Part shown: positions 904-31,826 of the stretch, in pieces
Position numbering within the stretch: the stretch's first letter is position 1
How the letters are laid out: every line of letters starts with the position of its first letter
DNA from: Tubulanus polymorphus
Lineage: Eukaryota > Animalia > Nemertea
DNA: 64,000 nucleotides
Assembly: GCF_964204645.1 (NCBI RefSeq)
Contig: NC_134031.1
Location: forward strand, 14,805,807 to 14,869,806
Direction: 5' to 3'
The notes under the pieces: model-generated
Database searches by the model: none
Told to the model about the DNA's origin: nothing
Seen by the model: the letters and a program-made list of their open reading frames with translations, nothing else
Made by a program: the position numbers and the translations under genes

Positions 904-11261
<10,358 letters not shown>

Positions 11262-13927: not shown

Positions 13928-14135
13928 AGTAATAGGGGTTTAGTTGTTCTATACCAAAGGTCGAAAGGTCGAGGTCGAGAAATTTTCCAAAATGTTAAAA
14001 TAACAATAATTTCTACTTGAATTAGTCGCGTACACTCCTAATTCAAGTAGAAATTATTATTATTTTAACATTTTGGAAAATTTATCAACCTCAACCTCTC
14101 AACCTTTGATATAGAACAACTAAACCCCTATTACT
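13928..14135. repeat. Terminal 208-bp palindrome (98-nt arms, 12-nt loop 14026-14037), mirrored at 31619-31826
   Basis: AGTAATAGGGGTTTAGTTGTTCTATA...TATAGAACAACTAAACCCCTATTACT, with 7 mismatches between the arms. Confidence 0.93.
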
Positions 14136-14232
14136 CTATCTAATCACAAGTCTCATCATTTACAAGCCTCAACACGTTGAGTATTGCGTATTACATGTTG
14201 ATTCTAGAACCATCCATCTAGGAAATTACATT

Positions 14233-14566
14233 AGCCAATCACAGTTGAGTATTACGCTAGCCAATCACAGTTGAGTATTTCCAGCCAATCACAGTTGAGT
14301 ATTTTACTATTAATCTATCCAATCACAGTTGAGTATTACTCTATCCAATCACAGTTGAGTATTCCCTATTACACTAGCCAATCACAAGCCTCATAATTTA
14401 CAAGTCTCAACACGTTGAGTATTCCCTATTACACTAGCCAATCACAAGCCTCATAATTTACAAGTCTCAACACGCAGCTTGGTTTTCCCCACTGTTGAGT
14501 AGTATAAATAGGCGGGACTCACACGCGGTAGGACTCATACGTGGCGGGACGCGTTGAGAGGTAAGT
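14233..14566 (+). promoter_or_regulatory. Putative Pol II promoter in the TIR: 7 CCAAT boxes in tandem repeats, TATAAATA (14503-14510), two GGCGGGA motifs, splice donor AG|GTAAGT (14561)
   Basis: CCAATCAC at 14235, 14261, 14285, 14319, 14345, 14378 and 14438. A 60-bp direct duplication spans 14354-14473. The mirror copy is upstream of pPolB. Confidence 0.65.
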
Positions 14567-14932
14567 GTTATGTTCAATTTTAATAAAAAATATAGTATTA
14601 AAATGGAAGCAAATAAGTACTACTGTCCAACATGTAATATCGATATAGATAAATCCCAAAAAGCAAGACACAATAAAACTAAAACACATTTAGAGAATAA
14701 ATTGAAACTAGAATATGAAGATGATATATTCAGAACAGTTAACAAAAGGAAAAAAATTTATTGAATTATGGAATAATGATCCAAATAATGAACAATACGT
14801 TAAGGAATTTGATATCAAGGAATCGAAAGAACTTATCAAAAGCAGCGAGGAATGAAAAAGGATGACGTTGGTCGAAGAAATGGAAGAGGATTCTAAAATG
14901 TTAATCAATTTTAATAAAAATATGTATAATAA

Positions 14933-15718
14933 ATGGAGTCGGAACAATCACAAGCTATAAATATAAACAATAATGGAGTAATAAATATATGCTATAAGAA
15001 ATGTTATAAGTGTGAATTGAATAAATCATTAACAGAATTTCATAATCATAAAAAAACTAAAGATGGTAAAAATTGTTATTGCAAAACTTGTTATAAACTA
15101 TATAATAAACAATATCAAGCAAATAATCCAAATTATTCAACACAATATTATATGGATAATATTGAAAAATTCAAAGTTAGAAATAAACAATGGAGAGAAA
15201 ATCACTCAGATTATATAACAGAATATATGAGAGAATGGAGGGATAATAATAGAGAATATTATAAAGCGTATCAAAATAATTATCAAAATGAAAAATATCA
15301 AACAGATTTTAATTACAAATTGAAAAAATGTTTAAGATCTAAAGTATCAAAATTATTCAGTAAAGAAAACCACTCAGTTACACTAACACATTTATTGGAT
15401 TGTTCAGATAAATTTTTTAAATCATGGATAACATATCAATTCGATGATAAAATGAATATAAATAATTATGGCAATTATTTTCAAATAGACCATGTTTTAC
15501 CAGTTTCGAAATTTAACATGAATGATGAATACAATAAAAAGTTAATTTGGAATTGGAAGAATTTAAGACCTCTTGAAAAGAAGGAAAATATGATTAAACA
15601 TGACAAACTAGATTTACAATTATATTTAGAACAGTTAATAAAAGTAAAGAAATTCATTGAATTATGGAACAATAATCCAAATAATGAACAATATGTTGGG
15701 TCTTTATTGAGTGGTTAA
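14933..15718 (+). CDS. HNH-family (endonuclease VII-like) endonuclease with N-terminal Cys4 zinc ribbon
   Basis: KKCYKC...FH...KDG...YCKTC, then helical Y/W-rich repeats, then FQIDHVLPVSKF...WKNLRPLEKKENMIK. Confidence 0.75.
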   Translation: MESEQSQAININNNGVINICYKKCYKCELNKSLTEFHNHKKTKDGKNCYCKTCYKLYNKQYQANNPNYSTQYYMDNIEKFKVRNKQWRENHSDYITEYMREWRDNNREYYKAYQNNYQNEKYQTDFNYKLKKCLRSKVSKLFSKENHSVTLTHLLDCSDKFFKSWITYQFDDKMNINNYGNYFQIDHVLPVSKFNMNDEYNKKLIWNWKNLRPLEKKENMIKHDKLDLQLYLEQLIKVKKFIELWNNNPNNEQYVGSLLSG

Positions 15719-15967
15719 AGATTAATATATCTCAAATAAAATATAATTAAAAAAACAATAACTTCAACTAGCTAGTGAATTCTATTATATTTTTAATATT
15801 TTCTTTTCAAAAAGAGAATACTTTATATTTTGAATAGATCCGAATAGAAATTCTTTAAATTCAAATAGCTAGTATCAGTAGTCAATACTAGAATTCTTTA
15901 GCTTTAACTAGCTAGTATCATTTGAAGAATACTTATAATATTTTTTTGCTTTTTTTCTCTAATATAA

Positions 15968-16570
15968 ATGTCAAAGAAATCTAATAAGAATAGTATTGAT
16001 ATTGAAAAGACATTAGATGATTTGGGTATAAGTGATAATAAAGATACAGTTGCAACTAATTGTGCTCAAGTTAATAACAATATAGATTATGAATACTATT
16101 TATATTGTAAACATCATCTTGAATTATTAATTGCTGGCGGGAAATCTAAGGACTTCTTAGGAAAAATAATAACTTTTCAAGAACTAGACTCTATGAAACC
16201 CGATAAAGTAATAAAATATTTTAAGATTTATGAAGAGGCAAGATTAGCTAGAATAAACGACTCTATAAGTGATGGTATTGTTAAATGTTATTCAAAATTA
16301 TGTAACCAGTTAATACCAATTGATGATGAAAATAAATTATATAATGATTTGAAAAATGACTATTTAGTTATGACTGAATTACAAAAATGGGTCGGTTATG
16401 CTTCATTTCAATTAGGATCGGTTATGACGTTGATTTCTACTGGTGTCATAACATTTTCGAACATCAAACCTATGGAATATAAATCAGGTAAGAACGAAAC
16501 AGATATACTACAACAAAACGTCGAAACAGAAAATGAATCAGAACAAAAATTAACTAAAATAAATGAGTGA
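15968..16570 (+). CDS. Polinton protein of unknown function (200 aa)
   Basis: Intact ORF with TAAATG start context, a weakly hydrophobic C-terminal segment and an 8-nt overlap with the next ORF. Confidence 0.75.
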   Translation: MSKKSNKNSIDIEKTLDDLGISDNKDTVATNCAQVNNNIDYEYYLYCKHHLELLIAGGKSKDFLGKIITFQELDSMKPDKVIKYFKIYEEARLARINDSISDGIVKCYSKLCNQLIPIDDENKLYNDLKNDYLVMTELQKWVGYASFQLGSVMTLISTGVITFSNIKPMEYKSGKNETDILQQNVETENESEQKLTKINE

Positions 16571-16958
16571 TGGAGTTAAGAAAAAGGCTAGATCCGAGAA
16601 ACAAATTAAATGGGCAAGAGAATTAGGTAAAAGATCATCAGAATTAAAAAAAGCTAAGAAAAAGAAATTAACTGATATAAATGAATCACAGACTTTATCT
16701 GATGATGCCGTACGGCACCCACACGGTAGTATTGATTCAAATAATAATCCATCTAATTCTTCTAATGCTGGAAGTAATTATAAATTATATATTACAATTG
16801 GATTAGTAACAGTTATTATATTATCCGGTGTAATATATAAATCAAAATTCAAATCTGATGATAAATATGATTCCAATGATGATAAACCTATCATACTAGA
16901 AAATAAGTCAAATCATAAAGCCATTGAAACTAAATCTAAATTATTATTAATGGATTAA
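16563..16958 (+). CDS. Polinton small basic protein with one predicted transmembrane helix (131 aa)
   Basis: Basic N-terminus and hydrophobic LYITIGLVTVIILSGVIY. TAAATG start. Confidence 0.75.
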   Translation: MSDGVKKKARSEKQIKWARELGKRSSELKKAKKKKLTDINESQTLSDDAVRHPHGSIDSNNNPSNSSNAGSNYKLYITIGLVTVIILSGVIYKSKFKSDDKYDSNDDKPIILENKSNHKAIETKSKLLLMD

Positions 16959-16964
16959 AATAAG

Positions 16965-18050
16965 ATGAAAAAAGAACAATATTTAAGAGATTTATATTAC
17001 AACCCAGAAAGTGAAGTATCATATTCTAACGTTTCAGAATTATGGGATAAAATTAAATCTGATAAAGAAAAAATAAAATATAGTGAATTAAAATCATGGT
17101 TACAAAATCAACCCACATATCAAATTCATAAAAAGATGGATAAAACTTATTTAACAAGAAAAGTAATGGTTTCATATATTGACCAACAATGGCAAGCTGA
17201 TTTAATTGATATGAAAAACTTAGAAGAATATAACAAAGGATATTTTTGGATACTAAATGTTATAGATATATTCAGTAGATACGCATGGAGTATCCCGATT
17301 AAAAATAAAACTGGTATAGAAGTTACAAATTCTTTCAAATTAATATTTAAAGAAGCTATTCCAGATAAAATACAATTTGATGAAGGTAAAGAATTTTATA
17401 ACAAACATTTTAAAAAACTATTAACTGATAACGATGTAGAATATTTTTCAACACATTCAGATAAAAAAGCATCTATTATAGAAAGATTTAATAAAACATT
17501 GAAAACTAGAATGTGGAAATATTTTACTGCTAATGAAACATATAAATATATCGATGTGTTAGATGATTTAGTTAAAGGTTATAATAATTCTAAACATAGT
17601 TCTATAAATATGAAACCCATACAAGCTAGAAAAGAAGAAAATTCAGAAATAGTTTGGAATAATTTATATGGAGCATTTGTTACACATGATTTTGGAGAAC
17701 CTAAATTTAAAATAGGACAACACGTTAGAATTTCTAAATATAGAAAAACATTTTATAAAGGTTATACCCCTAATTTTACTGAAGAAATATTTAAAATTAA
17801 AAAGATAATATTAACTAAACCATTTGTTTATAAATTGTTTGATTTAAAAGATGAAGAAATATTAGGTTATTTTTATGAACAAGAATTATCATTAGTACCA
17901 AATCCAGATGAAATAGAATACAAAATAGAAAAGGTATTAAAAACTAAAACATTACGCGGTAAGAAATATTCTCTGGTGAAATATAAAGGATATGATGATA
18001 AATTTAATGAATGGATTTTATCTAGTAAAATTAAAAGAATAAATGAATAA
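16965..18050 (+). CDS. Retroviral-like (RVE, DDE) integrase with C-terminal chromodomain
   Basis: WQADLIDM, VIDIFSRYAW, QFDEGKEF, IERFNKTLK. C-terminal YKIEKVL...LVKYKGYDDKFNEWI. Confidence 0.95.
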   Translation: MKKEQYLRDLYYNPESEVSYSNVSELWDKIKSDKEKIKYSELKSWLQNQPTYQIHKKMDKTYLTRKVMVSYIDQQWQADLIDMKNLEEYNKGYFWILNVIDIFSRYAWSIPIKNKTGIEVTNSFKLIFKEAIPDKIQFDEGKEFYNKHFKKLLTDNDVEYFSTHSDKKASIIERFNKTLKTRMWKYFTANETYKYIDVLDDLVKGYNNSKHSSINMKPIQARKEENSEIVWNNLYGAFVTHDFGEPKFKIGQHVRISKYRKTFYKGYTPNFTEEIFKIKKIILTKPFVYKLFDLKDEEILGYFYEQELSLVPNPDEIEYKIEKVLKTKTLRGKKYSLVKYKGYDDKFNEWILSSKIKRINE

Positions 18051-18657
18051 AGATTTATTTATATTTGAACCTCATAATATGTTAGTTACTGGAGTTACAA
18101 ATTGTGGTAAAACACACTTCATATTAGATTTATTAGAAACTATTTATAAAAATCATTTTGATAATATAATATTATTCTGTCCTACTTATGAAATGAATGA
18201 AACGTATAATAGAGATATAGTTTTTAAAGATAAAAAGTTTATTATATTAAATTCTAAAACAGTGAAAGATAATTTAGATAATTGTATAAAAATTGCATTA
18301 GATATTTATAAAGGATCTAATACATTATTTATTATTGATGATTGCACAAATTTACATGATTCAAAAGTTAGAGAAAGTGAGTTATGTTATTTAGCTTTCT
18401 CTGGTAGACATTTTGGGATAACAACATGGGTTTTAAATCAGAAATATAATTCAATTGTGAAAGACTTTAGGGAGAATATAAGATTTCTAGTTTTATTTTA
18501 TAACAAAGATAAAAAATCTATGCAACAATCATTGGAAGAAAATCAAATTATACCTACTGAATTACATGATGAATATATGAATAAATTAAAGAATAATAAA
18601 GGTTCCAAATTACTTATGAGATTACAATTTCCATATGAATATAAATTTATAAAATAA
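18043..18657 (+). CDS. A32-like (FtsK-HerA superfamily) genome-packaging ATPase
   Basis: Walker A GVTNCGKT, Walker B LFIIDD, GRH motif, and Q...REN motif. Confidence 0.92.
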   Translation: MNKDLFIFEPHNMLVTGVTNCGKTHFILDLLETIYKNHFDNIILFCPTYEMNETYNRDIVFKDKKFIILNSKTVKDNLDNCIKIALDIYKGSNTLFIIDDCTNLHDSKVRESELCYLAFSGRHFGITTWVLNQKYNSIVKDFRENIRFLVLFYNKDKKSMQQSLEENQIIPTELHDEYMNKLKNNKGSKLLMRLQFPYEYKFIK

Positions 18658-18673
18658 AATCCTAATTCAAAAT

Positions 18674-19051
18674 ATTATAGAATTCACTGTATACTAATGG
18701 ATGAGTGGATGAATTGGATGAATTGGATGAATTGGATGAGTGGATGAATGGATGAGTGTAATAATATATAATTTACATATGTTTTTTATTTTTAAAACAG
18801 TAAGAGTTTGATTTGAAGTTATTTTATCAATTTTATACTATATTTAAATATTATTTTAATAATATATATATATTGTGTTAAATTTAATAAAGAATATAAA
18901 TATTATATTTATACTCATACTATTCTTCCAATTTATGTGTTAAAAAGTAAAATATATATATTATTATACTCATCCACTCTTCCACTCATCCAACTCATCC
19001 AACTCTTCCAACTCATCCATTCATCCATCAATATACAGTGAATTCTATAAT
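18674..19051. repeat. Central inverted repeat (97-bp arms 18674-18770 and 18955-19051) between the convergent gene blocks
   Basis: The arms align without gaps (10 mismatches). Each has 7 GGAWGAR units and ends ATTATAGAATTCACTGTATA. Confidence 0.9.
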
Positions 19052-19055
19052 CTTT

Positions 19056-20081
19056 TTAATTTTCATTTTCATATTTTTCTTTAAGCTTATTGTATTCTAA
19101 CCATAAATTCCTTTGCATTTTCATTGGTATAGGTCCTAAATGATTCTCGAGTTTATATTTATTGAATGTTTTTCTTGAAAATATTTTTGGAATATAATTT
19201 TCGATTTCAGTTTTAGATGGATGTTTATTTAAAAATTCTCTAAAATCATCATATTTAAGTTCAAATAAGTTCATTGCATAAGTAACATTTGGTTTAAAGT
19301 TATCTAACTTTTTCAATATGGTAACTATATCATTACTCAAGAAATAATCTATAAATGTTTTTCTATACCACCGATAATCTAATATATTCTTATTATTAAA
19401 TTTTGGATTTATAACTGTTGGATTTTCTATTACATTATCTGTACCAATATGTTTAATTGAGTATTTATGATTCAATTGTTTATCATATATTACATATTCT
19501 TTACATTTTTCACACCAAGATTTAAATACTTGTATTGCATGGGCTGAATCATTTCCACCTTTTGTTTTTAATTTATAATGTTTTGCCCAATTAGCCTTTG
19601 TTATACATTCATTACAGAAGGCACAATAATTCTGATCCTCTTTGCATTTATCTTTATATATATTGGCATATGTTTTTACTAATTGTAAAATATGTTCAAC
19701 TTTTTTTATGTGTAATAAATAATCATTATAATTATCAAAATCTTCTTCACAATACATACATCTGATGTTATCTTTTGGTTGAACATTTGATTTTTCTATT
19801 TTAGGTTCAATATTATATTCTATTTTTGTTTCAATCTTATCATCATTCGATGTAGAAGGTATAACATTATCTTCTATTTTAGGTTCAATATTATCTTCTA
19901 TTTTAGGTTCAATATTATCTTCTATTTTTGTTTCAATATTCTTATCTATTTTACTTATTCTATATTTGAATTGATTAAAGTAATCTCCAAAATACTTACT
20001 GTATTCATCATAAGGTAATATATAATATATATCTGATATCATTTCACTTGGAGATTGTATTTCATATATTCCACCTTCCAT
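19056..20081 (-). CDS. Polinton zinc-finger protein with KIEDNIEP tandem repeats (341 aa)
   Basis: CMYC...H...H, CAFC...H and CEKC...H...H motifs. 24-bp coding repeats at about 19790-19940. Confidence 0.75.
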   Translation of the reverse strand: MEGGIYEIQSPSEMISDIYYILPYDEYSKYFGDYFNQFKYRISKIDKNIETKIEDNIEPKIEDNIEPKIEDNVIPSTSNDDKIETKIEYNIEPKIEKSNVQPKDNIRCMYCEEDFDNYNDYLLHIKKVEHILQLVKTYANIYKDKCKEDQNYCAFCNECITKANWAKHYKLKTKGGNDSAHAIQVFKSWCEKCKEYVIYDKQLNHKYSIKHIGTDNVIENPTVINPKFNNKNILDYRWYRKTFIDYFLSNDIVTILKKLDNFKPNVTYAMNLFELKYDDFREFLNKHPSKTEIENYIPKIFSRKTFNKYKLENHLGPIPMKMQRNLWLEYNKLKEKYENEN

Positions 20082-20113
20082 TTATTATATACATTTTTAT
20101 TAACGTTAAAATT

Positions 20114-21361
20114 CTAATACATAACACTATCTAATTGTGAATTTACAATATTTAATTGCGCGTCAGATATAATATAAATATGCATTTTAAAATTTTTGAT
20201 TCCCTTTTTCTTTGTCATGAATAATTGTATTCCATCTTTAGTGTTCTGTAGTTTTTTTCCAGAACCATGTAATAAGTTATCCTCTGTTGTTCTAAAATCT
20301 AACCATAATGCATATTTATTACCGGTATAATAATCAATTTGATTAATGTTACAATTTTCAAATGATTTTACTTTTTCATTCATAAAATGTTTTTTAATTT
20401 CTACCCATTGATCAATCATTCTCATTCCTTGACAGAATATTTTATTTGCTATACCTTCGATAGTTATTTCTACTTTTGTTATTTCAGGATTATAATAATT
20501 ATCAACATTTATTGCGCCATTAGTATACGTTCCAATGGTAAAAAATATTAATATACCTTTAATAGATCTTCTAGGGAAGTTAATATTCTCATTAATTATT
20601 TCATCATTTGCATTAATAGTAACAGTTTTAAATTTATCAATATAATCATATAATAATGAAAACCCTTGATTATATTTAGTTTGAATTATACTTGAAATAT
20701 TTTCATCAGTTACTGTATCATATTCTAAACATATATTCGATAATTTATAACTCATATCTTTAACAACGCTAGATAATACAATTTCATTTACAGGAGCAAA
20801 TTTTATTTCAAATATAATATCTTCTTGAATTGCGTATTTATATAAAGGTGCATTATTATTTATCAATTCAAAATCTAATGGAATTTTATATTTGCTTCCA
20901 TATATACTTTTTATCAATTTATCTACATCATTAGTTAATATTGCGCTATTAGCTTCTGATCTTAATTTATTTTGGTTTTCTGATTGAATTCCTTGAAATA
21001 TCATATTATTTCTATTTTCTTTAGTTAACCATAAATCTTTATAATGCATAAATAAATTATAATCATCTAATGAGAAAACTGTTTCTGGACCAATCTTTAT
21101 TGTTAACTTTTTAATCAAATATCTTCCAACATTATCAACGACATAATTATTATTATTACCGATTACTTTTATATCAGCTGATAAATAAATACTGTTTGGA
21201 ACATAAAAAGTATTTTGTGTTAATCGAGGGATTCTAACATATAAAGTTTCATCAGGATTAATATTAGAAGGGTTATGAGTAATTATATGATGTGATCTTT
21301 CTGCTTTGATAGCATTAGATATTCTAGAAATCTTAGAAGGACTTATATAACTCCCACTCAT
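20114..21361 (-). CDS. Major capsid protein (double jelly-roll), putative
   Basis: 415 aa with beta-rich patterning (TLYVRIP, IKKLTIKIG, LSNICLEYD, NINFPRRSIKGILIFF, YNPEITKVEITIEG, YALWLDFR). Size and context fit a Polinton MCP. Confidence 0.8.
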   Translation of the reverse strand: MSGSYISPSKISRISNAIKAERSHHIITHNPSNINPDETLYVRIPRLTQNTFYVPNSIYLSADIKVIGNNNNYVVDNVGRYLIKKLTIKIGPETVFSLDDYNLFMHYKDLWLTKENRNNMIFQGIQSENQNKLRSEANSAILTNDVDKLIKSIYGSKYKIPLDFELINNNAPLYKYAIQEDIIFEIKFAPVNEIVLSSVVKDMSYKLSNICLEYDTVTDENISSIIQTKYNQGFSLLYDYIDKFKTVTINANDEIINENINFPRRSIKGILIFFTIGTYTNGAINVDNYYNPEITKVEITIEGIANKIFCQGMRMIDQWVEIKKHFMNEKVKSFENCNINQIDYYTGNKYALWLDFRTTEDNLLHGSGKKLQNTKDGIQLFMTKKKGIKNFKMHIYIISDAQLNIVNSQLDSVMY

Positions 21362-21382
21362 TTATTTAACAAAAAAAATTAA

Positions 21383-23077
21383 TTATTTATTTTTTGATAT
21401 CATATTTACTAAACCAAAAATAATAGCACTTACAACCGTAATTAAAAATAAAATAATATGTTCAGCAGCAAAGTTAATAATGTTTCCTGCAGATTTCAAT
21501 ATAAAACCAACAATTGATGCAATAACTCCTGGCAATGCTGCAGCAGATTTCTTTGATAGTTCCCATAAATATTTTGCTAATTTTTTTAAACCATCTTTAA
21601 CTTTATCTTGTATAGAATTATTATCATTCGGGGGTTTATCCGGTTTATTTGGAGTAGGAGTAGATTTCAAAGCATTTGATATTGCTAAACCAATTGTTGT
21701 AAATAACATAGTTACAGCTGTTAGAATTGAAAGAATTGTTATTCCTTCTAACTTAAATAATAATTTTATTCTGTCTTTTAATGATATTTTAGAATTTGGT
21801 TTAATCAACAAATCTTTAAAAATAACTTTTAATCTATTAATATTATAATCATATGATTTTAATAATAATTTAATTTCTTCTTTTTGTAATTCTATGTTAT
21901 ATTCTAAATCATCTTTTTCTTTTTCTAAACGTAATTCTTTTTGCCTATATTCTATTTCATCAATTACTTGATGATCTAAATCAGACTTTAATTGTTCTAT
22001 TTCTTTATTTTTATCAGTTAATTCTTTTTCTAAAGTTCTAATCTTAAAATCTCTTATACTTTTATCATGCGCAATTTTATCAGCTGATTCTTGCATACCT
22101 TTAATTTCTCTACGTGTTTGTTCAGGAAATGCTTCTAATTCATCATCAGTTAAATCAAATAATCCTTTTTCTAGTAAATATTGCAGTCGATTTATTCCAG
22201 TACTATTCATTTCTTCTTCTGAATCACTTAATCTATTAATTTGTTTTTCTAATTGTAATTGTAATTGTAATTGACTTGAATCATTATCAATTGGTTGAGT
22301 GTCTCTTCTCGATGTTTCGGGTGTTGAAGATCTTAATTTATCTAATCGATTTCTATTCTCTTCCATTTCTGGATCAAAATCAGTAGGATTTGGATTTTTA
22401 AATGGTGAATATTTGTTTATATCAATATTAGGAATTGGTTCTTCTTCATTTACTCTATCGAGTGCATTCCATATAATTCTGAGAAATTCTCTACCACCTT
22501 TTGAACTTTCAATTGTAGATGTTGCTCGCATTCCAGGTTCAAAAATATTTTCTTGACCCATTCTAGATAATTGAATTGATACAGTATTCCTATTTAATTC
22601 AAGATTATAATACCATGCATCATTTTTAAATTCTAAATTATTTGTGAAATATGGGTCATCTTTAAAAATTTGTTCTACAACACCTTCAGTATCAATTTCA
22701 TCTATTACAACTTTTGGTAATAGTTCGTTAACAATTGTATCTGTTACTCTAGATTTCATTTTATATAATTCCATAGGTTTATCAGGATATTTTTCTTGTT
22801 GTTTTTCTAATAGTTCCATAAATTCTTTTCTTTCTCTTCTAGTTGAAATTCTACCCCTTTCAGGAGCTTCTGAATATTTATTTAATTTTTCACGTAATTC
22901 GGGATCATCATCATAATCATCATCATAATCATCATCTTCACCTAAATTAGTATTATATGCTGATTCATCATCATTATCAATATTAGTTTCTGCATCATTA
23001 TAATCATCATCAATATATCCTTCATTATTATTTCCCATTTCTCCCATTTCATAATCTTCTCCACCTTCTACATCCAT
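21383..23077 (-). CDS. Polinton acidic/coiled-coil protein with C-terminal hydrophobic and amphipathic helices (564 aa)
   Basis: D/E-rich N-terminus and heptad region, then GITILSILTAVTMLFTTIGLAI, AAAALPGVIASIVGFIL and IILFLITVVSAIIFGLV. Confidence 0.8.
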   Translation of the reverse strand: MDVEGGEDYEMGEMGNNNEGYIDDDYNDAETNIDNDDESAYNTNLGEDDDYDDDYDDDPELREKLNKYSEAPERGRISTRRERKEFMELLEKQQEKYPDKPMELYKMKSRVTDTIVNELLPKVVIDEIDTEGVVEQIFKDDPYFTNNLEFKNDAWYYNLELNRNTVSIQLSRMGQENIFEPGMRATSTIESSKGGREFLRIIWNALDRVNEEEPIPNIDINKYSPFKNPNPTDFDPEMEENRNRLDKLRSSTPETSRRDTQPIDNDSSQLQLQLQLEKQINRLSDSEEEMNSTGINRLQYLLEKGLFDLTDDELEAFPEQTRREIKGMQESADKIAHDKSIRDFKIRTLEKELTDKNKEIEQLKSDLDHQVIDEIEYRQKELRLEKEKDDLEYNIELQKEEIKLLLKSYDYNINRLKVIFKDLLIKPNSKISLKDRIKLLFKLEGITILSILTAVTMLFTTIGLAISNALKSTPTPNKPDKPPNDNNSIQDKVKDGLKKLAKYLWELSKKSAAALPGVIASIVGFILKSAGNIINFAAEHIILFLITVVSAIIFGLVNMISKNK

Positions 23078-23093
23078 TTACATAATAAAAAAA

Positions 23094-24476
23094 TTAAAAT
23101 TTAAAATATAATATTCCTCCGATTACAATTCCTATACAAGTTATAGCTAATTTAGTATTTTCATGGGATTTATTATCATCATTTAGTTTAATTATATCAT
23201 GTTGAATTTTATCAGTTCTATTATTTTCTGATGTATTGTAATCTTTTATTTTAGAATCATTATTTAATTTAATATTATTAGTTTTAGTTTCAGTTGATTG
23301 AATATGTTTTTTATTTTTTTCACCTTCCATTAATTTTGGAGTAGTAATAATGTTTTTATTTATATCATTTAATCCAAATGAATTATTTATTGTTGCAGTT
23401 TTAATTAGATTATTATAACCAATTATATTTCCCATCTTTAATACTAAATCATTAGAAATAATTAATAGATTAGGGCCTATACAATAATTTAATCTAATAT
23501 GTGATTTATCTAAATAATTTTGATATCTTATAATGTTTTCTGGAATCGATCTATTTTTATCATTATGAATTGAATCTTCAAATAAAACTTTAAATTGTTT
23601 TTGTGTATCAAATGATGTATTCTAATTTCCAATTATCGGTGATCTTGTTTCAACTTGTGATCCTAGAATACATATCAAATAAGTTCTAATAGATTGATTT
23701 ATTCTTTCTATACCTGATTTAGTAAAACCTTCACTATTTTCTAAAATAAAATAAACCCAACCATTATTGTTTTCTTGTTTTAAATTATCATAAAATTTCG
23801 GTAATTTATTGAAATTTAATGTTTCTAAATCCTTTGTTTCTATTTTACCATAACCTAATTTATTATTATAGATATTATAAAAACTATTAGATGGTATGGG
23901 AAGTGCACAATATTCTGCAATCTTTTTAGGGCAAGGAAGTGATCTTATTGTTCCAATTTTTGTTCTAAAATCAGAATTATTCATATCTATATTAAATTCA
24001 TTACAAATCTTATAAAACTTAGATAAATTAATATTATTATCCAATTCTTTGAAATATTTAGATCCTGGTAAAGCGCACTCTAATTCATTTAATATTATTC
24101 TGATTTGAAAGTATGTATGAAATCTAAATAAACTTTGAATTAATTTATATTTAGAATTATTCAAATGATCATTCCAACTAATTCCACATCCTGTTGTTGC
24201 ACAATAAACAGCAAAATTTAATTGATTCTGCCAATACTTCATATTAGATTTTAATAACCATTGTTTTTCATCTTTCAATTTTTTAAAATTAATTAAATAT
24301 ACATGAAATATATTTTCCATCTTTGCATTAAAATTATTAGTTTCAGTAACATAAATTTCTAAATTAGTTAATGAATCTAAAACTTCATTTCTATATGTAA
24401 TATCTTTATTAAAATCTATTGCTGGAATATTATATTTAATTGATTTATTATATTGGAAAGCTTTTGGAAACCCCAT
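23094..24476 (-). pseudogene. Single Polinton gene (about 460 codons, C-terminal TM anchor) interrupted by an in-frame TAG at 23622-23624
   Basis: Reading through the TAG gives ...SPIIGN*NTSFDTQKQFKVLFEDSIH...DLVLKMGNIIGYNN..., joining ORFs 23622-24476 and 23094-23435 in one frame with no other stop. Confidence 0.85.
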
Positions 24477-24492
24477 TTATATAACTAAAAAA

Positions 24493-24924
24493 TTAATAAT
24501 TTATTAATTCTTTTAATAATTTATCTTTTTCAACTGTTATATGACCATTTAAACTTATTATATAATCTAGTGTGTTCTTTAATTTATTAATTTCTTTTAT
24601 ATTAGTTTTAATTTTTTCTTTATTACTTTTTATATTTAATTTTGAACTTATACCAGTTAAAACACTTGAACTTAATCCTAATACACCAATTGATATAGCT
24701 AAAGGTGTTAATGGGCTGAATATTGCTAAAAATGTTATTACAGAACTAATTGTAACCGAACCACTTATAATCAAATAATATATAATTTTACTTTTTAAAT
24801 ATTTTTTCTTTTTAACTTTTAAGTCACTTTCAAATTCTAATATTTGTTTTTCTAAATATGTTTTTAATTTAGTTTTATTTATATCATGAGGAATAATATC
24901 AATACTATCAACTTTATCTTCCAT
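24493..24924 (-). CDS. Polinton two-TM hairpin membrane protein (143 aa)
   Basis: IIYYLIISGSVTISSVITFLAIF and LAISIGVLGLSSSVLTGI, flanked by basic coiled-coil segments. Confidence 0.78.
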   Translation of the reverse strand: MEDKVDSIDIIPHDINKTKLKTYLEKQILEFESDLKVKKKKYLKSKIIYYLIISGSVTISSVITFLAIFSPLTPLAISIGVLGLSSSVLTGISSKLNIKSNKEKIKTNIKEINKLKNTLDYIISLNGHITVEKDKLLKELINY

Positions 24925-24943
24925 TTATTTAGAATAAAAATTA

Positions 24944-25366
24944 CTAATTAGTAAACTTATAAGCAACAAATATAACAATAACTGTTCCACCTAAAATCCA
25001 TATTATTTCATATTTTTGTTGTTCTTTACTTGGGGTATAATAATCTGATAATTTAGGTTTGTATAGATGTAATTTTTCTTTATTGGTTACTGCGTTATAT
25101 AAACTCATTGCATCATCAACTGATTGAAAATCTCTATGTGAAATCTTCTGATCATATAATTCTTTATTGATGTAATCCATATAGTTTTGCCTCTTTTCTC
25201 TATATTCTTCTGCAGCTTTATTGTATTTCTCTAACGCTAAGTTATGTCTTCTTTGTTCTCCTAATGAACTATTTTTATCAATATGTTTAAATAAATAACC
25301 ACCACCAGTAAATGCTAAAGCGTTAACAATTGCCGATCCTATAATAGTTATAATTGCAGAAGCCAT
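24944..25366 (-). CDS. Polinton small protein with N-terminal hydrophobic helix and C-terminal TM (140 aa)
   Basis: MASAIITIIGSAIVNALAFTGGGYLF, ExRRHNLALE and IIWILGGTVIVIFVAY. Confidence 0.78.
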   Translation of the reverse strand: MASAIITIIGSAIVNALAFTGGGYLFKHIDKNSSLGEQRRHNLALEKYNKAAEEYREKRQNYMDYINKELYDQKISHRDFQSVDDAMSLYNAVTNKEKLHLYKPKLSDYYTPSKEQQKYEIIWILGGTVIVIFVAYKFTN

Positions 25367-25391
25367 TTATTTAGCAAAAAAAATTATGCAT

Positions 25392-25613
25392 TTATATGGG
25401 AGGAATATATTTTTGTTTTTCCAAATAATCAATAGTTAAATTAGATAAAGTAACTGCTAATGTTAACTTTAAAATATCATTTATATCAAATCTATCAACA
25501 TTAACACTTCCCATTTTGAATACTTTTTTTAATACCATTGAATAACCAACCGTTCCAACTGATAGTAATGCGCCATTATATAATCCAGTTATTATCCACT
25601 TATTATCACTCAT
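25392..25613 (-). CDS. Polinton small hydrophobic protein (73 aa)
   Basis: Intact ORF whose ATG directly abuts the upstream TAA (TAAATG). Two hydrophobic segments. Confidence 0.72.
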   Translation of the reverse strand: MSDNKWIITGLYNGALLSVGTVGYSMVLKKVFKMGSVNVDRFDINDILKLTLAVTLSNLTIDYLEKQKYIPPI

Positions 25614-25955
25614 TTATTTATCAAAAAAATTACTATCATCAAAATATTTAGTTAACTTATTTATGATTAATTCAACATTTATTTCATTACTAGTTTTATG
25701 ATTATCATATATTTTGGTTAATATGTTTTTAATATCATCAATAATTCCATCTTCATTTAATTCATAATATTCTAAAGGTGATTTAATTAAATCAATTACT
25801 TTTTCTATATCATAATTTTCTTTATCAATCATTGATGCATTGTTAAATGATTTACTTTTTATATCAGTAATTACATCATTTAGTTTAATTCTCATTTCTT
25901 TACCATGTTTAAAATCAAACCCAAAACATATACTCGGTCCAACAGTTATATTCAT
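25614..25955 (-). CDS. Polinton protein of unknown function (113 aa)
   Basis: Intact ORF in a tightly packed block with the shared AATTTTT...TAAATG start context. Confidence 0.7.
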   Translation of the reverse strand: MNITVGPSICFGFDFKHGKEMRIKLNDVITDIKSKSFNNASMIDKENYDIEKVIDLIKSPLEYYELNEDGIIDDIKNILTKIYDNHKTSNEINVELIINKLTKYFDDSNFFDK

Positions 25956-25971
25956 TTATATAGGTGAAAAA

Positions 25972-26733
25972 TTACTCTTTACATCTTATAACTAATTCAT
26001 AAATTACAGGAAAGTTATTCAAATCAATTAAGTATCCATTATGATTTCTAATTTCTAATCTAAAATTATTAAAACTAGGAATGCATGGTTTGAAATCACA
26101 TTCTGTTAAATTATAATTTATTTGCGTTCCAAATTCTTTAACATTCTTCAATGGTAAAATGTTTAGTAAACCAGAATTACAAGTTATATCTTTAGTTGCT
26201 TCGAATGTTTTTGTAGGATCGATTAAATTGCAATAAATATAAAAATGTGTGTAAGGTATTAAGTTTGGTGTAGTAGCGTCAATATTTGTAAAAGATCTAT
26301 CTGGAAGAATTCCTAACAGTTTAGCTATAGGTTTTTTTACCATAATTTTATGTTTTTCACTATTAGACAACCTTATCTTTATTCTATCAGAACTCTCACT
26401 TTTTAAAAATCTAATACTAAACCCAGAACTACTACCTAATTTGTGCCAGGCTTTTCTATTAATTTCTTGTGCTAATGTATCTAAATTATATAACCCCGGT
26501 TTTAAATATATATAGACCCATTCATTTTTATTTTTATTAAAAACTAAAAAGACTCTATGTTCAATAGACTTATCCGATACATTGTAAAAAGAATTACATA
26601 AACTTATATTAACTAATTTTAAATCTACACAATTCTTAAATTCTCTATCTAATTGTACTAGTAAATTATGAGATTTATAATTTGTAAGTTTTCTTGAATC
26701 TACAAATATTCTGTATTCTTTTAATTCTACCAT
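25972..26733 (-). CDS. Minor capsid protein (penton, single jelly-roll), putative
   Basis: IFVDSR, FYNV, LKPGLYN, FYIYCNLID, LLNILP and C-terminal FRLEIRNHNGYLIDLNNFPVIYELVIR are typical of Polinton mCP. Confidence 0.8.
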   Translation of the reverse strand: MVELKEYRIFVDSRKLTNYKSHNLLVQLDREFKNCVDLKLVNISLCNSFYNVSDKSIEHRVFLVFNKNKNEWVYIYLKPGLYNLDTLAQEINRKAWHKLGSSSGFSIRFLKSESSDRIKIRLSNSEKHKIMVKKPIAKLLGILPDRSFTNIDATTPNLIPYTHFYIYCNLIDPTKTFEATKDITCNSGLLNILPLKNVKEFGTQINYNLTECDFKPCIPSFNNFRLEIRNHNGYLIDLNNFPVIYELVIRCKE

Positions 26734-26750
26734 TTATTTTACATATTTTC

Positions 26751-27088
26751 TCATTCGAAATCTATTTCATGGTGCCCTTTTTCATTCTTACCTTTGTATA
26801 CGAAATAGAAATCTCCAGAACATAATTCTTCTAGATCTTCACTTGATAATCTATGAAATCTATCTGGTAAATAAGTTCTGAATTTATATGTATTTCCTTT
26901 TAATCCTTCATATTCTAAGTGTATAACTAATTTATCTCCATATTTATTAGTAATTGTTTCAATGTTAGTAATTAAATATTTCTTGTGAATTGTTAACTCA
27001 GTTAACTGAATTTATAATCTACAGATTTGACGCTTGAAGTATCTTTAATTCTATCTAAGAATTCACTGTGTACTTGTTTACTCTCCAT
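26751..27088 (-). pseudogene. Small Polinton gene (about 112 codons) with a 1-nt frameshift near 27011-27013; absent from the ORF track
   Basis: MESKQVHSEFLDRIKDTSSVKSVDYK, then in the -1 frame IQLTELTIHKKYLITNIETITNKYGDKLVIHLE...TYLPDRF...FYFVYKGKNEKGHHEIDFE*. It has a TAAATG start and fills the gap between pPolB and mCP. Confidence 0.75.
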
Positions 27089-27116
27089 TTATTATACAAA
27101 TTTTTATTGAAATTGA

Positions 27117-30100
27117 TTAACACGCCGCTAGAATCCTTTTCATAATCTCATTTTCTTTTGTTTCTTCTCTTTTGAATTTTATATATTCATCTAAATTGCA
27201 ACCATAGGCGACTGTGTGGATTCCATCATCTAAAATATATCTTTTATCATCAAATGGATTCAAACTTATCTTCTCTATCTCTTCAATATACATTTCATGA
27301 TCTTCAGATCTTAAACATTTCATCTTATGTTTTCTAACTTCTTCATTAAATATACAATTGATATAATCTTTGAAATGAATATTCTTTTCAACAACGCTTT
27401 TGGTAATTCCTTTTAACTTTTTAGCTTCATGTTCTTTAGTTTTATATGAATACATTTTAGATCTAATACCAATGAACTCTATCATTTCTTCACCACCTAA
27501 TTCATCCTTAAACTTCCCTGGAACTTTTTTATTATCATTGCTAAACAATTCATGATTTTTAGGATAGTTACTGAAATCAAAATGATGTTTTAATGTTTTT
27601 AAATCATCAGTTATGTTATCAGTTTTTATCTTTAATCTGTAAGAATCTGTATCAAAATATAATATTTCTATGTGTTTTTCTCCAAAATGAGGTTGTAATA
27701 TATTATAATAGAATTCATACATTAGTAATTTTGATAACTCTAAAACTGCAGCTCCAACATAAATCGGTTTATTGAACTTCATAGAAGTTCTTTTTAATTT
27801 AACTGCTGCTAAATTTTCATCGAATATTCTATTACCTATAAATTTCGGATACGATTGTAAATGCCTTATCCTTTTACCATTACTAACTAACTCAATATCA
27901 TTTCTATTTCTTATGTTTTCACAAGTCTTACCATAGAATGCATTATTCATTAGTTTGAAGAAATCTTTCTCGAAATCAGTTTTAGATTTAGTTCTCTGTG
28001 TAGTATTAAAATCTATATATTTTTCTAACCATTTAGATTGACTGAATGAAATATATCTATGTACTTTTTTTAATATCATTCCTTGTCTCAAATAAAACTT
28101 CAACATTCTATAATGCACAACGTAATTATATTTACCTTCTTGAGTTACCATTAACTTTTCAGTATGAATATGATTATCGGGTTTAATTCTTTTTTGATAA
28201 TTTGATAATTCTTCATGTTTAACAGTTTTATGTTCGGGACAGTAAGCTAGATTTCTAGATTTGAATTTAATATTTTCAGGGTATTCTAAATCTACAACAA
28301 AGAAGTAACCAGTATCTGAATCATCTACAATATCTAGGATTCTTTTCTTCCAATCAAATTTATCAATTTGTAAAACTTCAGTTATTTCAAACATTCCATA
28401 AGGTTGTGGTTCCATCATTGCCCAACCATAAAGATTATTTGCATCTATGTATAATAATTTATATCCAGGATTATCATTTACATTGAAATATCTATCACCT
28501 AATACACCTGAAACACCTCCTCTTATAGATTTTTCAAATAATAGTAATTGATCTATATTTGTTAACAAATCCATTTCTATATCTGTAAATTCTAATCCAC
28601 AATCCCATGTTAATCCTGGTGATGAATAACAATGACAAGGATCAATATTGAAATATTTTAGGTTTACATCTCTAAACCTTTCGAATATATCGGTTAATAA
28701 TAATACATCTGATTTTAAATATAAATCTACTAATTGCCCATGATTTTCTATTTTGAAATGATTCCAAATATTCAATGTTCTATTATAGACTTCATCTTTA
28801 ACATATTCATTTTTTAATTCATCATAGAATTGTTCTTTTAATAATTCAGTTATATTAAAATCATTATGATTTTTATAGAAAGAATATGGAATCGCTCCTT
28901 TATATCTCATTAATTGGAAATCATCATTATTTGGGTAATATTCTTTTAATATCTTTAATTCATCATCAACTAATGATTTTGATAAGTTATCTAATGAACT
29001 ACTTAAAAATCTATATGAATCTATAAATCTTAGACAACCAAATTGGAATGATATATAATTCTCAGATGTTTTAGCTAACATTCTAAATTTATAAGTTGGT
29101 ATTTTATCTTTTGATCTATTTGAATTTAATATTTCTATTTCATTATTGATTTCTTCTATTTTATAACATAACTGTTTGATAAATAAATGTGCATCATACC
29201 CCGATAGATTATGAAATATAACTGGTACAAAGTTAATTTTCTTAGCTTGTAAGTTACAATTCTCATGTGCAGCGCCTCTAAACTTTCCATTCAAATGATC
29301 ATGGTCTCTTACTTTTTTATCTTTATAATTAAATATCTTTTCACAATAATAACATTCATCTGCAAACGCAAATTCTTCTTTATCTTCTTCTGTCATTATA
29401 ATTTCTATGTTTTTATTTAACTTTTCATTAAATCTTATTTCATATTCAATTAATAAGTCACAAAAATGATTGATAACATTTTCATTTCTGTAATCATAAT
29501 ATTCACTTTTAATTAGTTCTGGATAATTAGATTTAATATATAACCCGAAAGCTGCAGCTGATTGATGAATCTTTTTAATTGTATTTGTTATTGGTGGTTC
29601 ATCTGAAAAATCATTTTCATTAGAATTTAATTTCTTTCTTTTATAATATATATCTTTTCTATCTTTATCTGTTAATTCTTTATTTAATGATTCAAAATCT
29701 CCATATATTACAAATGGTACTTTATTTTTGTAATCATATTTTTTGAATTCTAATATTTTATCTTTTTCATTTGGTAAAACTAATTTACAATAATCATGAT
29801 TTTCACATAATTGTTTATGATTTAATAATGCACTTTCAGTTCTGAATTTATGTAAACATTTTCTACATAGATATATTTTATTATCAAAATCATTTTCTGA
29901 TTTAAAAAATAAATCAATTCTTTTAATCCACATATAATGATTCTCATAATATAGTATATCTATAACATCATTTGAATCATAATATTTTGATAGGTATAAA
30001 GGTTCTAATGTATAATGTTTAATATTATTTCCTTTTGTATTTGGTAATTTGATTAAATCAAATACATTTATCTTTATATTATTATCTCTTTCTATTTTTG

Positions 30101-31184
30101 GGATGTTTTTAATTCTAACAGGATACTTATCTATCTTATAATTACTTTCAAATGGTTTATAATGAGTTAATCTAAAACTATGTGTAATATCTTCTGTTGG
30201 ATGTAAACAACTTATTATAGCCCATAGAAAACATTTATCATCTTCATTTTGTACGTTTATAACAGCATTAGTTTTAAATGGTAGTTTAATATAACTTGTT
30301 CCATTTATACTATCATCTTTATAATATGATAAATTATTTTCATCAATTGGTTTTGATTTAGTTAACTTATTATATTTTGTGTTATAAACATGTAAAGTTA
30401 TAAATATTATCTCATCAAATATTAAACCAGATCCTTCAAAATATTTCTCTTCTATTTTAGTTTTTACTTCATTATAACATTTATCTAATTTATCATCTAT
30501 ATGTTGTTTAGATATAATATGTTGTGAATGAGAATTTATATTATATATTGGTTTATCTTCAGATTTTATAAACTTTACTTTAACTGATATACTAATTTTA
30601 GGATATTCAACATCTGTAATTATTTTTATTATTTCTTTCATATTTTCTAAATGTTTTTTATTTTCTTCTATTGTTTTACTTTTATGAAATTTAAACTCGA
30701 TAGCTGCTGGACCAATATCACTTTTAAATGCTTCGGTTATTTCTATATCTTTTTTATTATCTAATGAATTAATATAATTTCTTACATCTTCCATGTATGG
30801 TCTTTTATTGTTTAATTTATTTTTTATTCTTTTAATTGTCTTCTGTTTCTTATCGTTATCATTATCAAAATAATCTTCACCTAAAATATCATTATTCTTA
30901 TTTCTAATATGACTTATAGATTTTAAATGTTCTTTATAATATCTTTTATCACTGAATGATTGATTACATGCATCACATTTGTATGCTTCTTTTTCATCCT
31001 TTAATTCTTCTAATTTATTTTCTAATATATCATCTTCATATTCTAGTTTCAATTTATTCTCTAAATGTGTTTTAGTTTTATTGTGTCTTGCTTTTTGGGA
31101 TTTATCTATATCGATATTACATGTTGGACAGTAGTACTTATTTGCTTCCATTTTAATACTATATTTTTTATTAAAATTGAACAT
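27117..31184 (-). CDS. Protein-primed family B DNA polymerase (pPolB) with N-terminal zinc fingers, OTU-like and endonuclease VII-like domains
   Basis: Exonuclease motifs YGDFES, FHNLSGYDAH and RFIDS. Polymerase motifs YIDANNLYGWAM, KLMNNAFYGKT and YFDTDS. Also NEDDKCFLWA...NHY and CYYC...RDHDH...AHENCN. The real start may be the second ATG (31151). Confidence 0.97.
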   Translation of the reverse strand: MFNFNKKYSIKMEANKYYCPTCNIDIDKSQKARHNKTKTHLENKLKLEYEDDILENKLEELKDEKEAYKCDACNQSFSDKRYYKEHLKSISHIRNKNNDILGEDYFDNDNDKKQKTIKRIKNKLNNKRPYMEDVRNYINSLDNKKDIEITEAFKSDIGPAAIEFKFHKSKTIEENKKHLENMKEIIKIITDVEYPKISISVKVKFIKSEDKPIYNINSHSQHIISKQHIDDKLDKCYNEVKTKIEEKYFEGSGLIFDEIIFITLHVYNTKYNKLTKSKPIDENNLSYYKDDSINGTSYIKLPFKTNAVINVQNEDDKCFLWAIISCLHPTEDITHSFRLTHYKPFESNYKIDKYPVRIKNIPKIERDNNIKINVFDLIKLPNTKGNNIKHYTLEPLYLSKYYDSNDVIDILYYENHYMWIKRIDLFFKSENDFDNKIYLCRKCLHKFRTESALLNHKQLCENHDYCKLVLPNEKDKILEFKKYDYKNKVPFVIYGDFESLNKELTDKDRKDIYYKRKKLNSNENDFSDEPPITNTIKKIHQSAAAFGLYIKSNYPELIKSEYYDYRNENVINHFCDLLIEYEIRFNEKLNKNIEIIMTEEDKEEFAFADECYYCEKIFNYKDKKVRDHDHLNGKFRGAAHENCNLQAKKINFVPVIFHNLSGYDAHLFIKQLCYKIEEINNEIEILNSNRSKDKIPTYKFRMLAKTSENYISFQFGCLRFIDSYRFLSSSLDNLSKSLVDDELKILKEYYPNNDDFQLMRYKGAIPYSFYKNHNDFNITELLKEQFYDELKNEYVKDEVYNRTLNIWNHFKIENHGQLVDLYLKSDVLLLTDIFERFRDVNLKYFNIDPCHCYSSPGLTWDCGLEFTDIEMDLLTNIDQLLLFEKSIRGGVSGVLGDRYFNVNDNPGYKLLYIDANNLYGWAMMEPQPYGMFEITEVLQIDKFDWKKRILDIVDDSDTGYFFVVDLEYPENIKFKSRNLAYCPEHKTVKHEELSNYQKRIKPDNHIHTEKLMVTQEGKYNYVVHYRMLKFYLRQGMILKKVHRYISFSQSKWLEKYIDFNTTQRTKSKTDFEKDFFKLMNNAFYGKTCENIRNRNDIELVSNGKRIRHLQSYPKFIGNRIFDENLAAVKLKRTSMKFNKPIYVGAAVLELSKLLMYEFYYNILQPHFGEKHIEILYFDTDSYRLKIKTDNITDDLKTLKHHFDFSNYPKNHELFSNDNKKVPGKFKDELGGEEMIEFIGIRSKMYSYKTKEHEAKKLKGITKSVVEKNIHFKDYINCIFNEEVRKHKMKCLRSEDHEMYIEEIEKISLNPFDDKRYILDDGIHTVAYGCNLDEYIKFKREETKENEIMKRILAAC

Positions 31185-31826
31185 AACACTTACCTCTCAA
31201 CGCGTCCCGCCACGTATGAGTCCTACCGCGTGTGAGTCCCGCCTATTTATACTACTCAACAGTGGGGAAAACCAAGCTGCGTGTTGAGACTTGTAAATTA
31301 TGAGGCTTGTGATTGGCTAGTGTAATAGGGAATACTCAACGTGTTGAGACTTGTAAATTATGAGGCTTGTGATTGGCTAGTGTAATAGGGAATACTCAAC
31401 TGTGATTGGATAGAGTAATACTCAACTGTGATTGGATAGATTAATAGTAAAATACTCAACTGTGATTGGCTGGAAATACTCAACTGTGATTGGCTAGCGT
31501 AATACTCAACTGTGATTGGCTAATGTAATTTCCTAGATGGATGGTTCTAGAATCAACATGTAATACGCAATACTCAACGTGTTGAGGCTTGTAAATTATG
31601 AGACTTGTGATTAGATAGAGTAATAGGGGTTTAGTTGTTCTATATCAAAGGTTGAGAGGTTGAGGTTGATAAATTTTCCAAAATGTTAAAATAATAATAA
31701 TTTCTACTTGAATTAGGAGTGTACGCGACTAATTCAAGTAGAAATTATTGTTATTTTAACATTTTGGAAAATTTCTCGACCTCGACCTTTCGACCTTTGG
31801 TATAGAACAACTAAACCCCTATTACT
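31024..31826 (-). repeat. Right terminal inverted repeat (803 bp), includes the promoter and 5' end of pPolB
   Basis: Reverse complement of 13928-14730. Confidence 0.95.

Follow-up and report, generated by a model that had tools for sequence, protein, structure and literature searches.

The subject of this article is a window of 64,000 nucleotides (nt) from the nemertean Tubulanus polymorphus (contig NC_134031.1, positions 14,805,807 to 14,869,806) and, within it, an element of about 18 kb at 13928-31826 whose termini read AG...CT. There is little doubt that this element is an integrated virus of the type of Polinton-3_NV (P3_NV), an element of Nematostella vectensis, and the reading that I favour, with moderate confidence, is that of a recently integrated, virophage-like virus with two broken genes and no detectable protease, for which a pox-like helper likely supplies the RNA polymerase. 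An earlier note, made from the sequence alone, had already described a recent insertion of an endogenous Polinton-type virus with a real capsid module, and this description stands; what its author overlooked were the terminal hairpins, the absence of a protease and the motif TAAATG at the gene starts. New here are this motif, which is confined to one clade, and the hairpins at the ends.

A poxvirus-type motif at the gene starts

TAAATG is found at 14 of the 16 gene starts in the element, compared with 23 of the 412 other ATGs on the sense strand (Fisher p 1e-14), and the only genes that start without it are those for the integrase and for pPolB, the protein-primed DNA polymerase B. In eight of the 14 genes (that of the major capsid protein, MCP, six of its block neighbours and the gene for a protein of 200 amino acids, aa) a run of at least five Ts ends 6-8 nt upstream, and in three (the HNH gene, the 341-aa gene and the frameshifted gene) AATAAAAA lies 9 nt upstream of the start. 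The A-rich class of upstream sequence may, judging by the poxvirus consensus, be an 'intermediate' promoter. As set out in the available part of PMC5294985, the late promoter of poxviruses consists of a T-containing core, a spacer of 5-7 bp and TAAAT(G/A), and the intermediate promoter is bipartite with TAAA. Virophages and the virus Gezel carry the promoter motifs of their helpers, with mavirus and PgVV as precedents in the accessible text of 10.1101/2022.07.28.501842, and a motif of such a helper type, one mark of a provirophage lifestyle, is present at the gene starts here as a match of sequence. Because the starts are of poxvirus type, transcription by a co-infecting pox-like large DNA virus is likely, and since Pfam and PHROGs scans of the element's genes revealed no RNA polymerase, a pox-like helper is the leading reading.

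The motif marks one branch of the lineage. A quick MCP tree of 57 rows, which excludes partial or broken MCPs and does not count loci L081-L087, gives a window clade of 15 rows (14 loci and the window, SH-aLRT 99), a sister clade of 34 and a rest of 8. TAAATG opens 48 of the 56 core genes in the window clade, compared with 34 of 1066 internal ATGs; for the sister clade the figure is 2 of 208, and elsewhere the motif is seen at 8 of 31 starts in the eight remaining rows, concentrated in L069 and L072, and at 4 of 83 in loci outside the tree. Position -3 is T in 49/56 starts of the window clade versus a purine in 160/208 of the sister clade. The motif occurs in loci of 39-44% GC (L007, L008) and is absent from others of 26-29% (L017, L018, L057, L015), and since L008 (44% GC) has it at three of four starts and L017 (26%) at none of five, AT content is no explanation.

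Two further ideas were dropped. TTTTTNT is scarce among sense-strand sequences (5 versus 72 on the antisense strand), which is uninformative because A-rich coding strands produce such scarcity anyway; and TAAATG does not stem from stop-start coupling, the TAA being the upstream stop in one case only (25614/25613). Among the matches listed in a literature search that had subscription journals outside its scope, there was no Polinton paper with TAAAT and one virophage paper with a single TAAATG in the text available (PMC4722103); in the accessible portion of PMC11296320, which covers entomopoxvirus-associated polinton-like viruses (PLVs), neither 'promoter' nor 'TAAAT' occurs.

Gene content

The earlier note counted 16 intronless genes in two blocks pointing inward. 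Sixteen ATG open reading frames (ORFs) in two such blocks are indeed present, but two of them are parts of one split gene and a further, frameshifted gene had been overlooked; the revised count is 16, two of these broken. From left to right, with transmembrane abbreviated as TM, the features are:

14933-15718, plus strand: HNH/endonuclease VII-like nuclease, 261 aa, accessory (phrog_1035, E 2e-13); starts at TAAATG
15968-16570, plus strand: conserved lineage protein, 200 aa, C-terminal part hydrophobic
16563-16958, plus strand: basic protein, 131 aa, one predicted TM helix; distant homologues likely
16965-18050, plus strand: RVE integrase with chromodomain (Pfam rve; DDE motifs present)
18043-18657, plus strand: A32-like packaging ATPase (Pox_A32, E 3e-12; Walker A/B present)
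18656-19069, no strand: inverted repeat (arms of 115 nt, 87%) at the meeting point of the two convergent gene blocks
19056-20081, minus strand: Cys/His-rich protein, 341 aa, with short tandem repeats; close relatives only
20114-21361, minus strand: MCP, double jelly roll, P3_NV type (alignment-based fold and MCP comparison)
21383-23077, minus strand: acidic/coiled-coil protein, 564 aa, three predicted C-terminal TM segments; lineage core
23094-24476, minus strand: conserved gene of about 460 codons, C-terminal TM; interrupted by an in-frame stop at 23622-23624
24493-24924, minus strand: protein of 143 aa, two predicted TM segments; weak SLATT-like match
24944-25366, minus strand: protein of 140 aa, TM at either end; highly conserved lineage core
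25392-25613, minus strand: amphipathic protein, 73 aa; lineage core
25614-25955, minus strand: protein of 113 aa, only in one close relative
25972-26733, minus strand: probable minor capsid (penton) protein (sequence motifs, weak DUF5901 match)
26757-27088, minus strand: gene of about 110 codons, frameshifted near 27010 (intact homologue L003:125-466)
27117-31184, minus strand: pPolB, 1355 aa, with endonuclease VII insert (vOTU-like Cys/His, Exo I-III and Pol A-C motifs)

The frameshift near 27010 is why the gene at 26757-27088 was missed at first; its product may be an OB-fold or single-stranded-DNA-binding protein, which is a guess. Palindromes comparable to the AT-rich one between the convergent blocks are found in L001, L002, L003 and L005. 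TM segments are predicted in five window proteins or halves (hydropathy threshold 1.6), none of these membrane genes is named by Pfam or PHROGs, and the 143-aa gene matches a distant family with two TM segments weakly (E 0.008 among 16). The earlier remark on an atypical gene set, with about nine genes to which no function could be assigned, needs rewording: these genes mostly form a conserved lineage core rich in membrane proteins and not a random set. Animal outliers of this type, and holin- or SLATT-like genes in polisuviruses, have been noted in the available parts of PMC10120064, 10.64898/2026.06.19.733378 and 10.64898/2026.10.13.758929.

Hallmark genes, capsid and lineage

As the earlier note proposed, pPolB, RVE integrase and A32-like ATPase are present with all their catalytic motifs (vOTU Cys/His, Exo I-III and Pol A-C, the DDE triad, Walker A/B; domain plan from the accessible text of PMC11161782), and Pfam recognizes rve and the chromodomain, Pox_A32 and the endonuclease VII insert within the polymerase. 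The window polymerase itself has no match to PF03175 (DNA_pol_B_2), which its homologues in L027, L033, L044 and L084 match weakly, and it looks like the divergent 'Beta' type. The MCP candidate, for which a structure prediction had been proposed, gave a double jelly roll: the fold made with an alignment of 116 rows reached pLDDT 89.9 and superseded a single-sequence fold that was useless (pLDDT 32), and its best structural match is PBCV-1 8h2i (Z 26.5, rmsd 3.6, 353 residues aligned), followed by faustovirus, African swine fever virus (ASFV), Sputnik, mavirus and PRD1, with which Foldseek agrees. The ORF at 25972-26733 is probably a minor capsid (penton) protein (mCP), to judge from a weak DUF5901 match (E 0.002, in 3 of 20 members) and a motif order like that of published PX proteins as seen by eye. 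Sequence searches of the PDB with alignments of the MCP, mCP, 460-aa and 200-aa families returned no matches.

Residues 19-112 of the window MCP are identical to the P3_NV MCP at 45 of 94 positions in a gap-free hand count (sequence from PMC4028283, supplement 4). The available part of that paper tables P3_NV as having MCP and ATPase and no protease, and that of PMC11296320 groups P3_NV and Polinton-N1A_NV as a small clade that adjoins, with support 89, PgVV and two insect (entomopoxvirus-associated) PLVs and stands outside mavpol. The element has two of the marks of a P3_NV-type animal PLV, namely a double jelly-roll (DJR) MCP of this type and an A32 ATPase without a detected protease, the single jelly-roll penton being a candidate, and its MCP resembles that of P3_NV and not the mavpol lineage that would define Polintoviricetes; its position near the PLVs (Aquintoviricetes) would follow from the published P3_NV trees, the window's own MCP being linked to P3_NV by the hand count. 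The Maverick/Polinton label is apt under the transposon definition (pPolB, RVE integrase, long terminal inverted repeats, TIRs, and a 6-bp target-site duplication, TSD) and inapt in the strict sense of Polintoviricetes, with adintovirus capsid and adenain. The element is Maverick-like in replication and integration and PLV-like in its capsid module, and I do not file it under Polintoviricetes.

An adenain/Ulp1 protease has no Pfam match in the 16 window ORFs or the scanned ORFs of relatives, and a pattern for the catalytic order of the protease was matched by 0 of 789 open frames in the element and 87 relative loci, although a very divergent protease could escape it; phospholipase A2 (PLA2) was likewise not detected in the element. 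These relatives comprise L001-L080, metagenome loci that are the best 80 of 162, and L081-L087, which were added; both ends are visible in three (L027, L033, L084). A collection at 90% holds 769 MCP relatives, and an MCP profile run on a 50% library matches 382 clusters with E<=1e-30, or 1850 with E<=1e-10, the weaker of which may include other PLV groups. Most of the 80 loci are short, which bears on how often neighbours recur in them by tblastn: the ATPase in 62, the 564-aa TM protein in 35, the 140-aa protein in 30, the split gene in 24, the integrase in 22, the 200-aa and 73-aa proteins in 16 each and pPolB in 8. Six short lineage motifs were absent from one adintovirus supplement file, possibly incomplete, and the lineage is not singled out in the available portions of PMC11131425 or 10.1101/2023.08.22.554363.

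Relatives also exchange modules: a helicase-bearing replicase replaces pPolB (L028 9970-13596, L035 9279-12458), and there are a VLTF3-like gene (L046 5082-5576), a deoxynucleoside kinase (L003 10343-10981) and a fibre-like protein (L027 944-2218). L081, which carries a duplicated block of 4.7 kb, L083, L084 and the P0046 cluster are filed in bacterial metagenome-assembled genomes and Bartonella assemblies, probably through contamination from the host animal.

Termini and terminal hairpins

The ends of the element comprise the following features:

13922-13927, plus strand: left TSD, GCCGTG
13928-14730, plus strand: left TIR of 803 nt, differing from its right counterpart by one mismatch; holds a copy of the first 53 pPolB codons
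13928-14135, plus strand: terminal imperfect palindrome, 208 nt, beginning at the first base; -79 kcal/mol as single-stranded DNA, z -20
14126-14570, plus strand: TIR repeat region with seven CCAATC boxes, TATAAAT (14503), GGCGGG (14511, 14543) and GGTAAGT (14560)
14725-14952, plus strand: remnant in two parts, 77 nt that resemble the HNH gene's 3' end (90%) followed by 59 nt that resemble the pPolB end/next gene start (85%)
31024-31826, minus strand: right TIR, terminal palindrome at 31619-31826
31827-31832, plus strand: right TSD, GCCGTG, 6 bp, identical to the left copy

Both the exact TSD of 6 bp and the 803-bp TIRs that the earlier note reported are correct, and the one mismatch it had noticed is exactly the only one (14157/31597). 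The stub ORF in the left TIR is there because the TIR includes the first 53 codons of pPolB. Each TIR opens with the 208-nt hairpin, whose folding energy was matched by none of 200 shuffles; it looks like a mini-element itself, with the terminal motif at either end, and several of its stem mismatches (13928-14135) are C/T pairs at CpG sites, common to both TIRs. CpG observed/expected is 0.51 within the element versus 1.04-1.15 in the flanks, and GC content is 20-27% in its interior versus 29-52% elsewhere in the window. The region 14126-14570 is likely a host-type promoter that would drive pPolB, and the remnant at 14725-14952 was likely left when the TIR extended over an older gene. A shorter TIR variant also exists in the family: 95 reads of run X5 fuse the hairpin end to the pPolB start (window 14137-14574), bypassing the 436-nt CCAAT-repeat region.

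One relative, L084, is complete (285-15433), with an MCP 36% identical, a 6-bp TSD (TAGGAA) and a terminal hairpin of about 174 nt of unrelated sequence. Of the three relatives with visible ends it alone has one, a long terminal hairpin not being found in L027 and L033; the hairpins of L081 and L083 are not counted as ends of an element, since they resemble a different repeat that is also present outside L084. Terminal palindromes of about 52 nt at TIR ends are described, in the accessible text of 10.64898/2026.07.28.741278, for protist virophages and one PLV, mostly without pPolB.

Integrity of this copy

The element had been called complete, with intact core genes, and possibly still active. 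None of the hallmark genes is broken and there are many related copies, but two lineage-conserved genes are broken in this copy. L003 encodes a 442-aa protein that aligns with 69% identity over 23622-24476 and 23094-23435, in one frame and through a single stop, and in relatives 19 of 25 ORFs of this family are 410-511 aa long, the other six being cut by contig ends or broken, so that these two window ORFs must be halves of one gene. The stop and the frameshift may be real, inherited or assembly errors. Differences between the window and L003 fall mostly at third codon positions in the MCP and membrane genes (g73, for example: 0.08, 0.04, 0.33), which means that purifying selection acted on them until recently.

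A proposed helper-dependent virus and its alternatives

In the life cycle that I propose, the integrase would insert the linear genome and so make the 6-bp duplication; pPolB, probably expressed from the host-type promoter in the TIR, would copy the genome by protein priming, and the terminal hairpin would possibly re-form a duplex end on displaced strands. The machinery of the helper would then make leaderless late mRNAs for the MCP, penton, ATPase and membrane proteins, and particles, which would assemble without capsid cleavage, would probably contain or recruit a lipid membrane. The present copy would need intact relatives acting in trans. More tentatively, the whole clade may consist of provirophages of pox-like giant viruses of invertebrates, with many germ-line copies, pox intermediate and late promoters and protease-free membrane particles (tectivirus-like), woken by the helper and possibly kept as an inherited antiviral defence.

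Several observations weigh against helper dependence. The reading would rest on a promoter pattern in the sequence, with no helper, transcript, 5' end or particle observed, and two scans of IMG/VR viral contigs, with the MCP and the MCP alignment, found no free viral relative. The jelly roll of the mCP and the membrane of the particle are predictions, the MCP tree is a quick one with a compositional bias flagged for the window row, and the clade count contains the near-identical pairs L001/L002 and L012/L013, a single origin of the trait counting once. AATAAA overlaps 10 of the 14 motifs in the window, so the upstream gene's polyadenylation signal could play a part; the CCAAT, TATA and GC boxes and the splice-donor-like site of the TIR indicate nuclear host transcription of pPolB; the integrase and pPolB, both motif-less, need the nucleus for integration; and most of the wider lineage does without TAAATG (2/208 in the sister clade, 8/31 in the remaining branches).

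A possible if somewhat doubtful alternative is an autonomous nuclear virus of Polinton type on host RNA polymerase II, in which TAAATG is a compact signal of the clade, either an initiator or the upstream gene's poly(A) signal merged with the start that follows. The overlap with AATAAA, the host-type promoter elements in the TIR and a sister clade that has the same core genes without TAAATG all speak for it, as do coral polintoviruses that express their hallmark genes, according to the available part of PMC11131425. A poly(A) signal, however, leaves the fixed register with ATG unexplained, AA precedes the motif in only 26 of 62 TAAATG starts of relatives, TAAATG also precedes genes that have no abutting upstream gene, the spacing of the upstream T-run is fixed at 6-8 nt, and AATAAA within ORFs is not depleted (49 observed versus 47.8 expected). 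It is unlikely that the family now spreads only within genomes, as a self-synthesizing transposon, through pPolB and integrase, with promoters and capsid genes left over from a time of helper dependence: the two broken genes, the high read depth of relatives 90-99% identical and a pPolB with its own promoter-like TIR region would suit this, but the third-position bias relative to L003 bespeaks selection until recently and TAAATG is kept at 14 of 16 starts, also inside upstream coding sequence. That the assembly made a chimera here, out of family members or free viral DNA, is very improbable, for although no contig piece among the matches listed bridges a junction and the left flank is a high-copy repeat, the exact 6-bp TSD stands at both ends, as in L084, the window sits within a contig of 21.6 Mb, and contigs of run X1 that match the left flank and internal pieces show 0-2 differences from them.

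Comparison with known systems

Among the known systems closest to the element are P3_NV and Polinton-N1A_NV, which share a homologous MCP, an ATPase, the lack of a protease and a similar size (16.6 kb there), and in Polinton-N1A_NV the order of penton motifs, by eye, is that of the window mCP candidate. In the parts of the publications available, promoters with TAAATG, hairpins at the termini and a core of membrane proteins are not mentioned for these two. With Mavericks, Polintons and adintoviruses (Mavpol 1, 2) the element shares pPolB with vOTU, RVE integrase, A32 ATPase, DJR MCP, long TIRs, AG...CT, the 6-bp TSD and a size of 15-20 kb, but no adenain/Ulp1 or PLA2 was detected in it, and its best MCP structural matches are capsids of nucleocytoplasmic large DNA viruses; a single adintovirus entry ranks 25th (11% identity). 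PgVV and Gezel PLVs (Aquintoviricetes), AHEV_PLV2 and Ca_PLV1 adjoin the P3_NV clade in the published trees as far as these are accessible, and PLVs without the protease are on record in the available part of PMC4642659; unlike these PLVs, the element combines pPolB with RVE integrase, and unlike it, AHEV_PLV2 and Ca_PLV1, which are entomopoxvirus-associated, encode a protease in the accessible text of PMC11296320. Gezel carries the promoter motif of its helper, which in the description available is of mimivirus early type and unlike that of the element.

Mavirus integrates by means of an RVE integrase with a 6-bp TSD. In mavirus-type provirophages a late promoter is common to virophage and helper, and endogenous virophages and PLVs of Halocafeteria have palindromes at TIR ends adjoining the TSD, both according to partial accounts; these differ from the present element, which has a non-virophage MCP, an animal host and a 208-nt palindrome with pPolB, as opposed to about 52 nt and non-pPolB replicases.

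No virions of animal Polintons have been observed, as stated in the available part of a preprint (Bellas 2026, 10.64898/2026.06.19.733378), nor is a helper known for any of them, and the promoter signature would name the likely trigger of one such element, a pox-like virus. If true, this would extend the provirophage model from protists to animals and imply that invertebrates have pox-like viruses still to be discovered. Should the helper idea prove wrong, what was a 'small clade' made up of two Nematostella elements still turns out to be a large lineage (382 clusters) with conserved membrane proteins and no protease, and would be overlooked by surveys baited with the protease, such as an earlier one (PMC8502044, in its accessible portion).

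Copies, flanks and host region

Raw reads of another study (X5) match 12000-31000 72,396 times, 3,026 at 99% identity or above, 28,884 at 95-99% and 40,486 at 90-95%, and their depth is about 280-880 over core genes, whereas the genes for the HNH nuclease and the 341-aa protein and a portion of the 564-aa gene have 35-78; read depth here lacks a single-copy baseline and hence gives no copy number. This is a diverse multi-copy family with variable accessory parts, and reads of the species contain many related sequences. In run X1, contig pieces near-identical to 19173-19880 have a word depth of 1500-1770 versus 43 for the flank 13367-13830, and in run X2 of the same study the values are 71-81 and 15-34; X1 and X2 are perhaps the source of the assembly and not independent, and the contrast, word depth being no copy number, may reflect a difference in copies, libraries biased against AT-rich DNA, or free copies that were amplified.

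The insertion lies at the end of a high-copy host repeat (13801-13927), where X5 reads by thousands end loosely at 13801 and 13923-13925; it has no tRNA or Rfam match, and I call it 'SINE-like' (short interspersed nuclear element) from a B-box-like motif at 13910-13920 and its high read depth. Farther out, 1755-2735 resembles a fragment of a long interspersed nuclear element by eye, with no Pfam match, and an AAT-type/GAT-type microsatellite (3900-4700) and a GC-richer minisatellite (59850-60470) yield spurious ORFs. To the right, an intronless host gene with ankyrin repeats and a SOCS box (32588-35314, minus strand) ends about 760 nt from the element, followed by a zinc-finger ORF (37425-38933, minus strand) and long TSP1 and Ig/TM exons, including 48072-50899 (plus strand); the TSP1, Ig and ankyrin-SOCS genes in the flank indicate an animal host.

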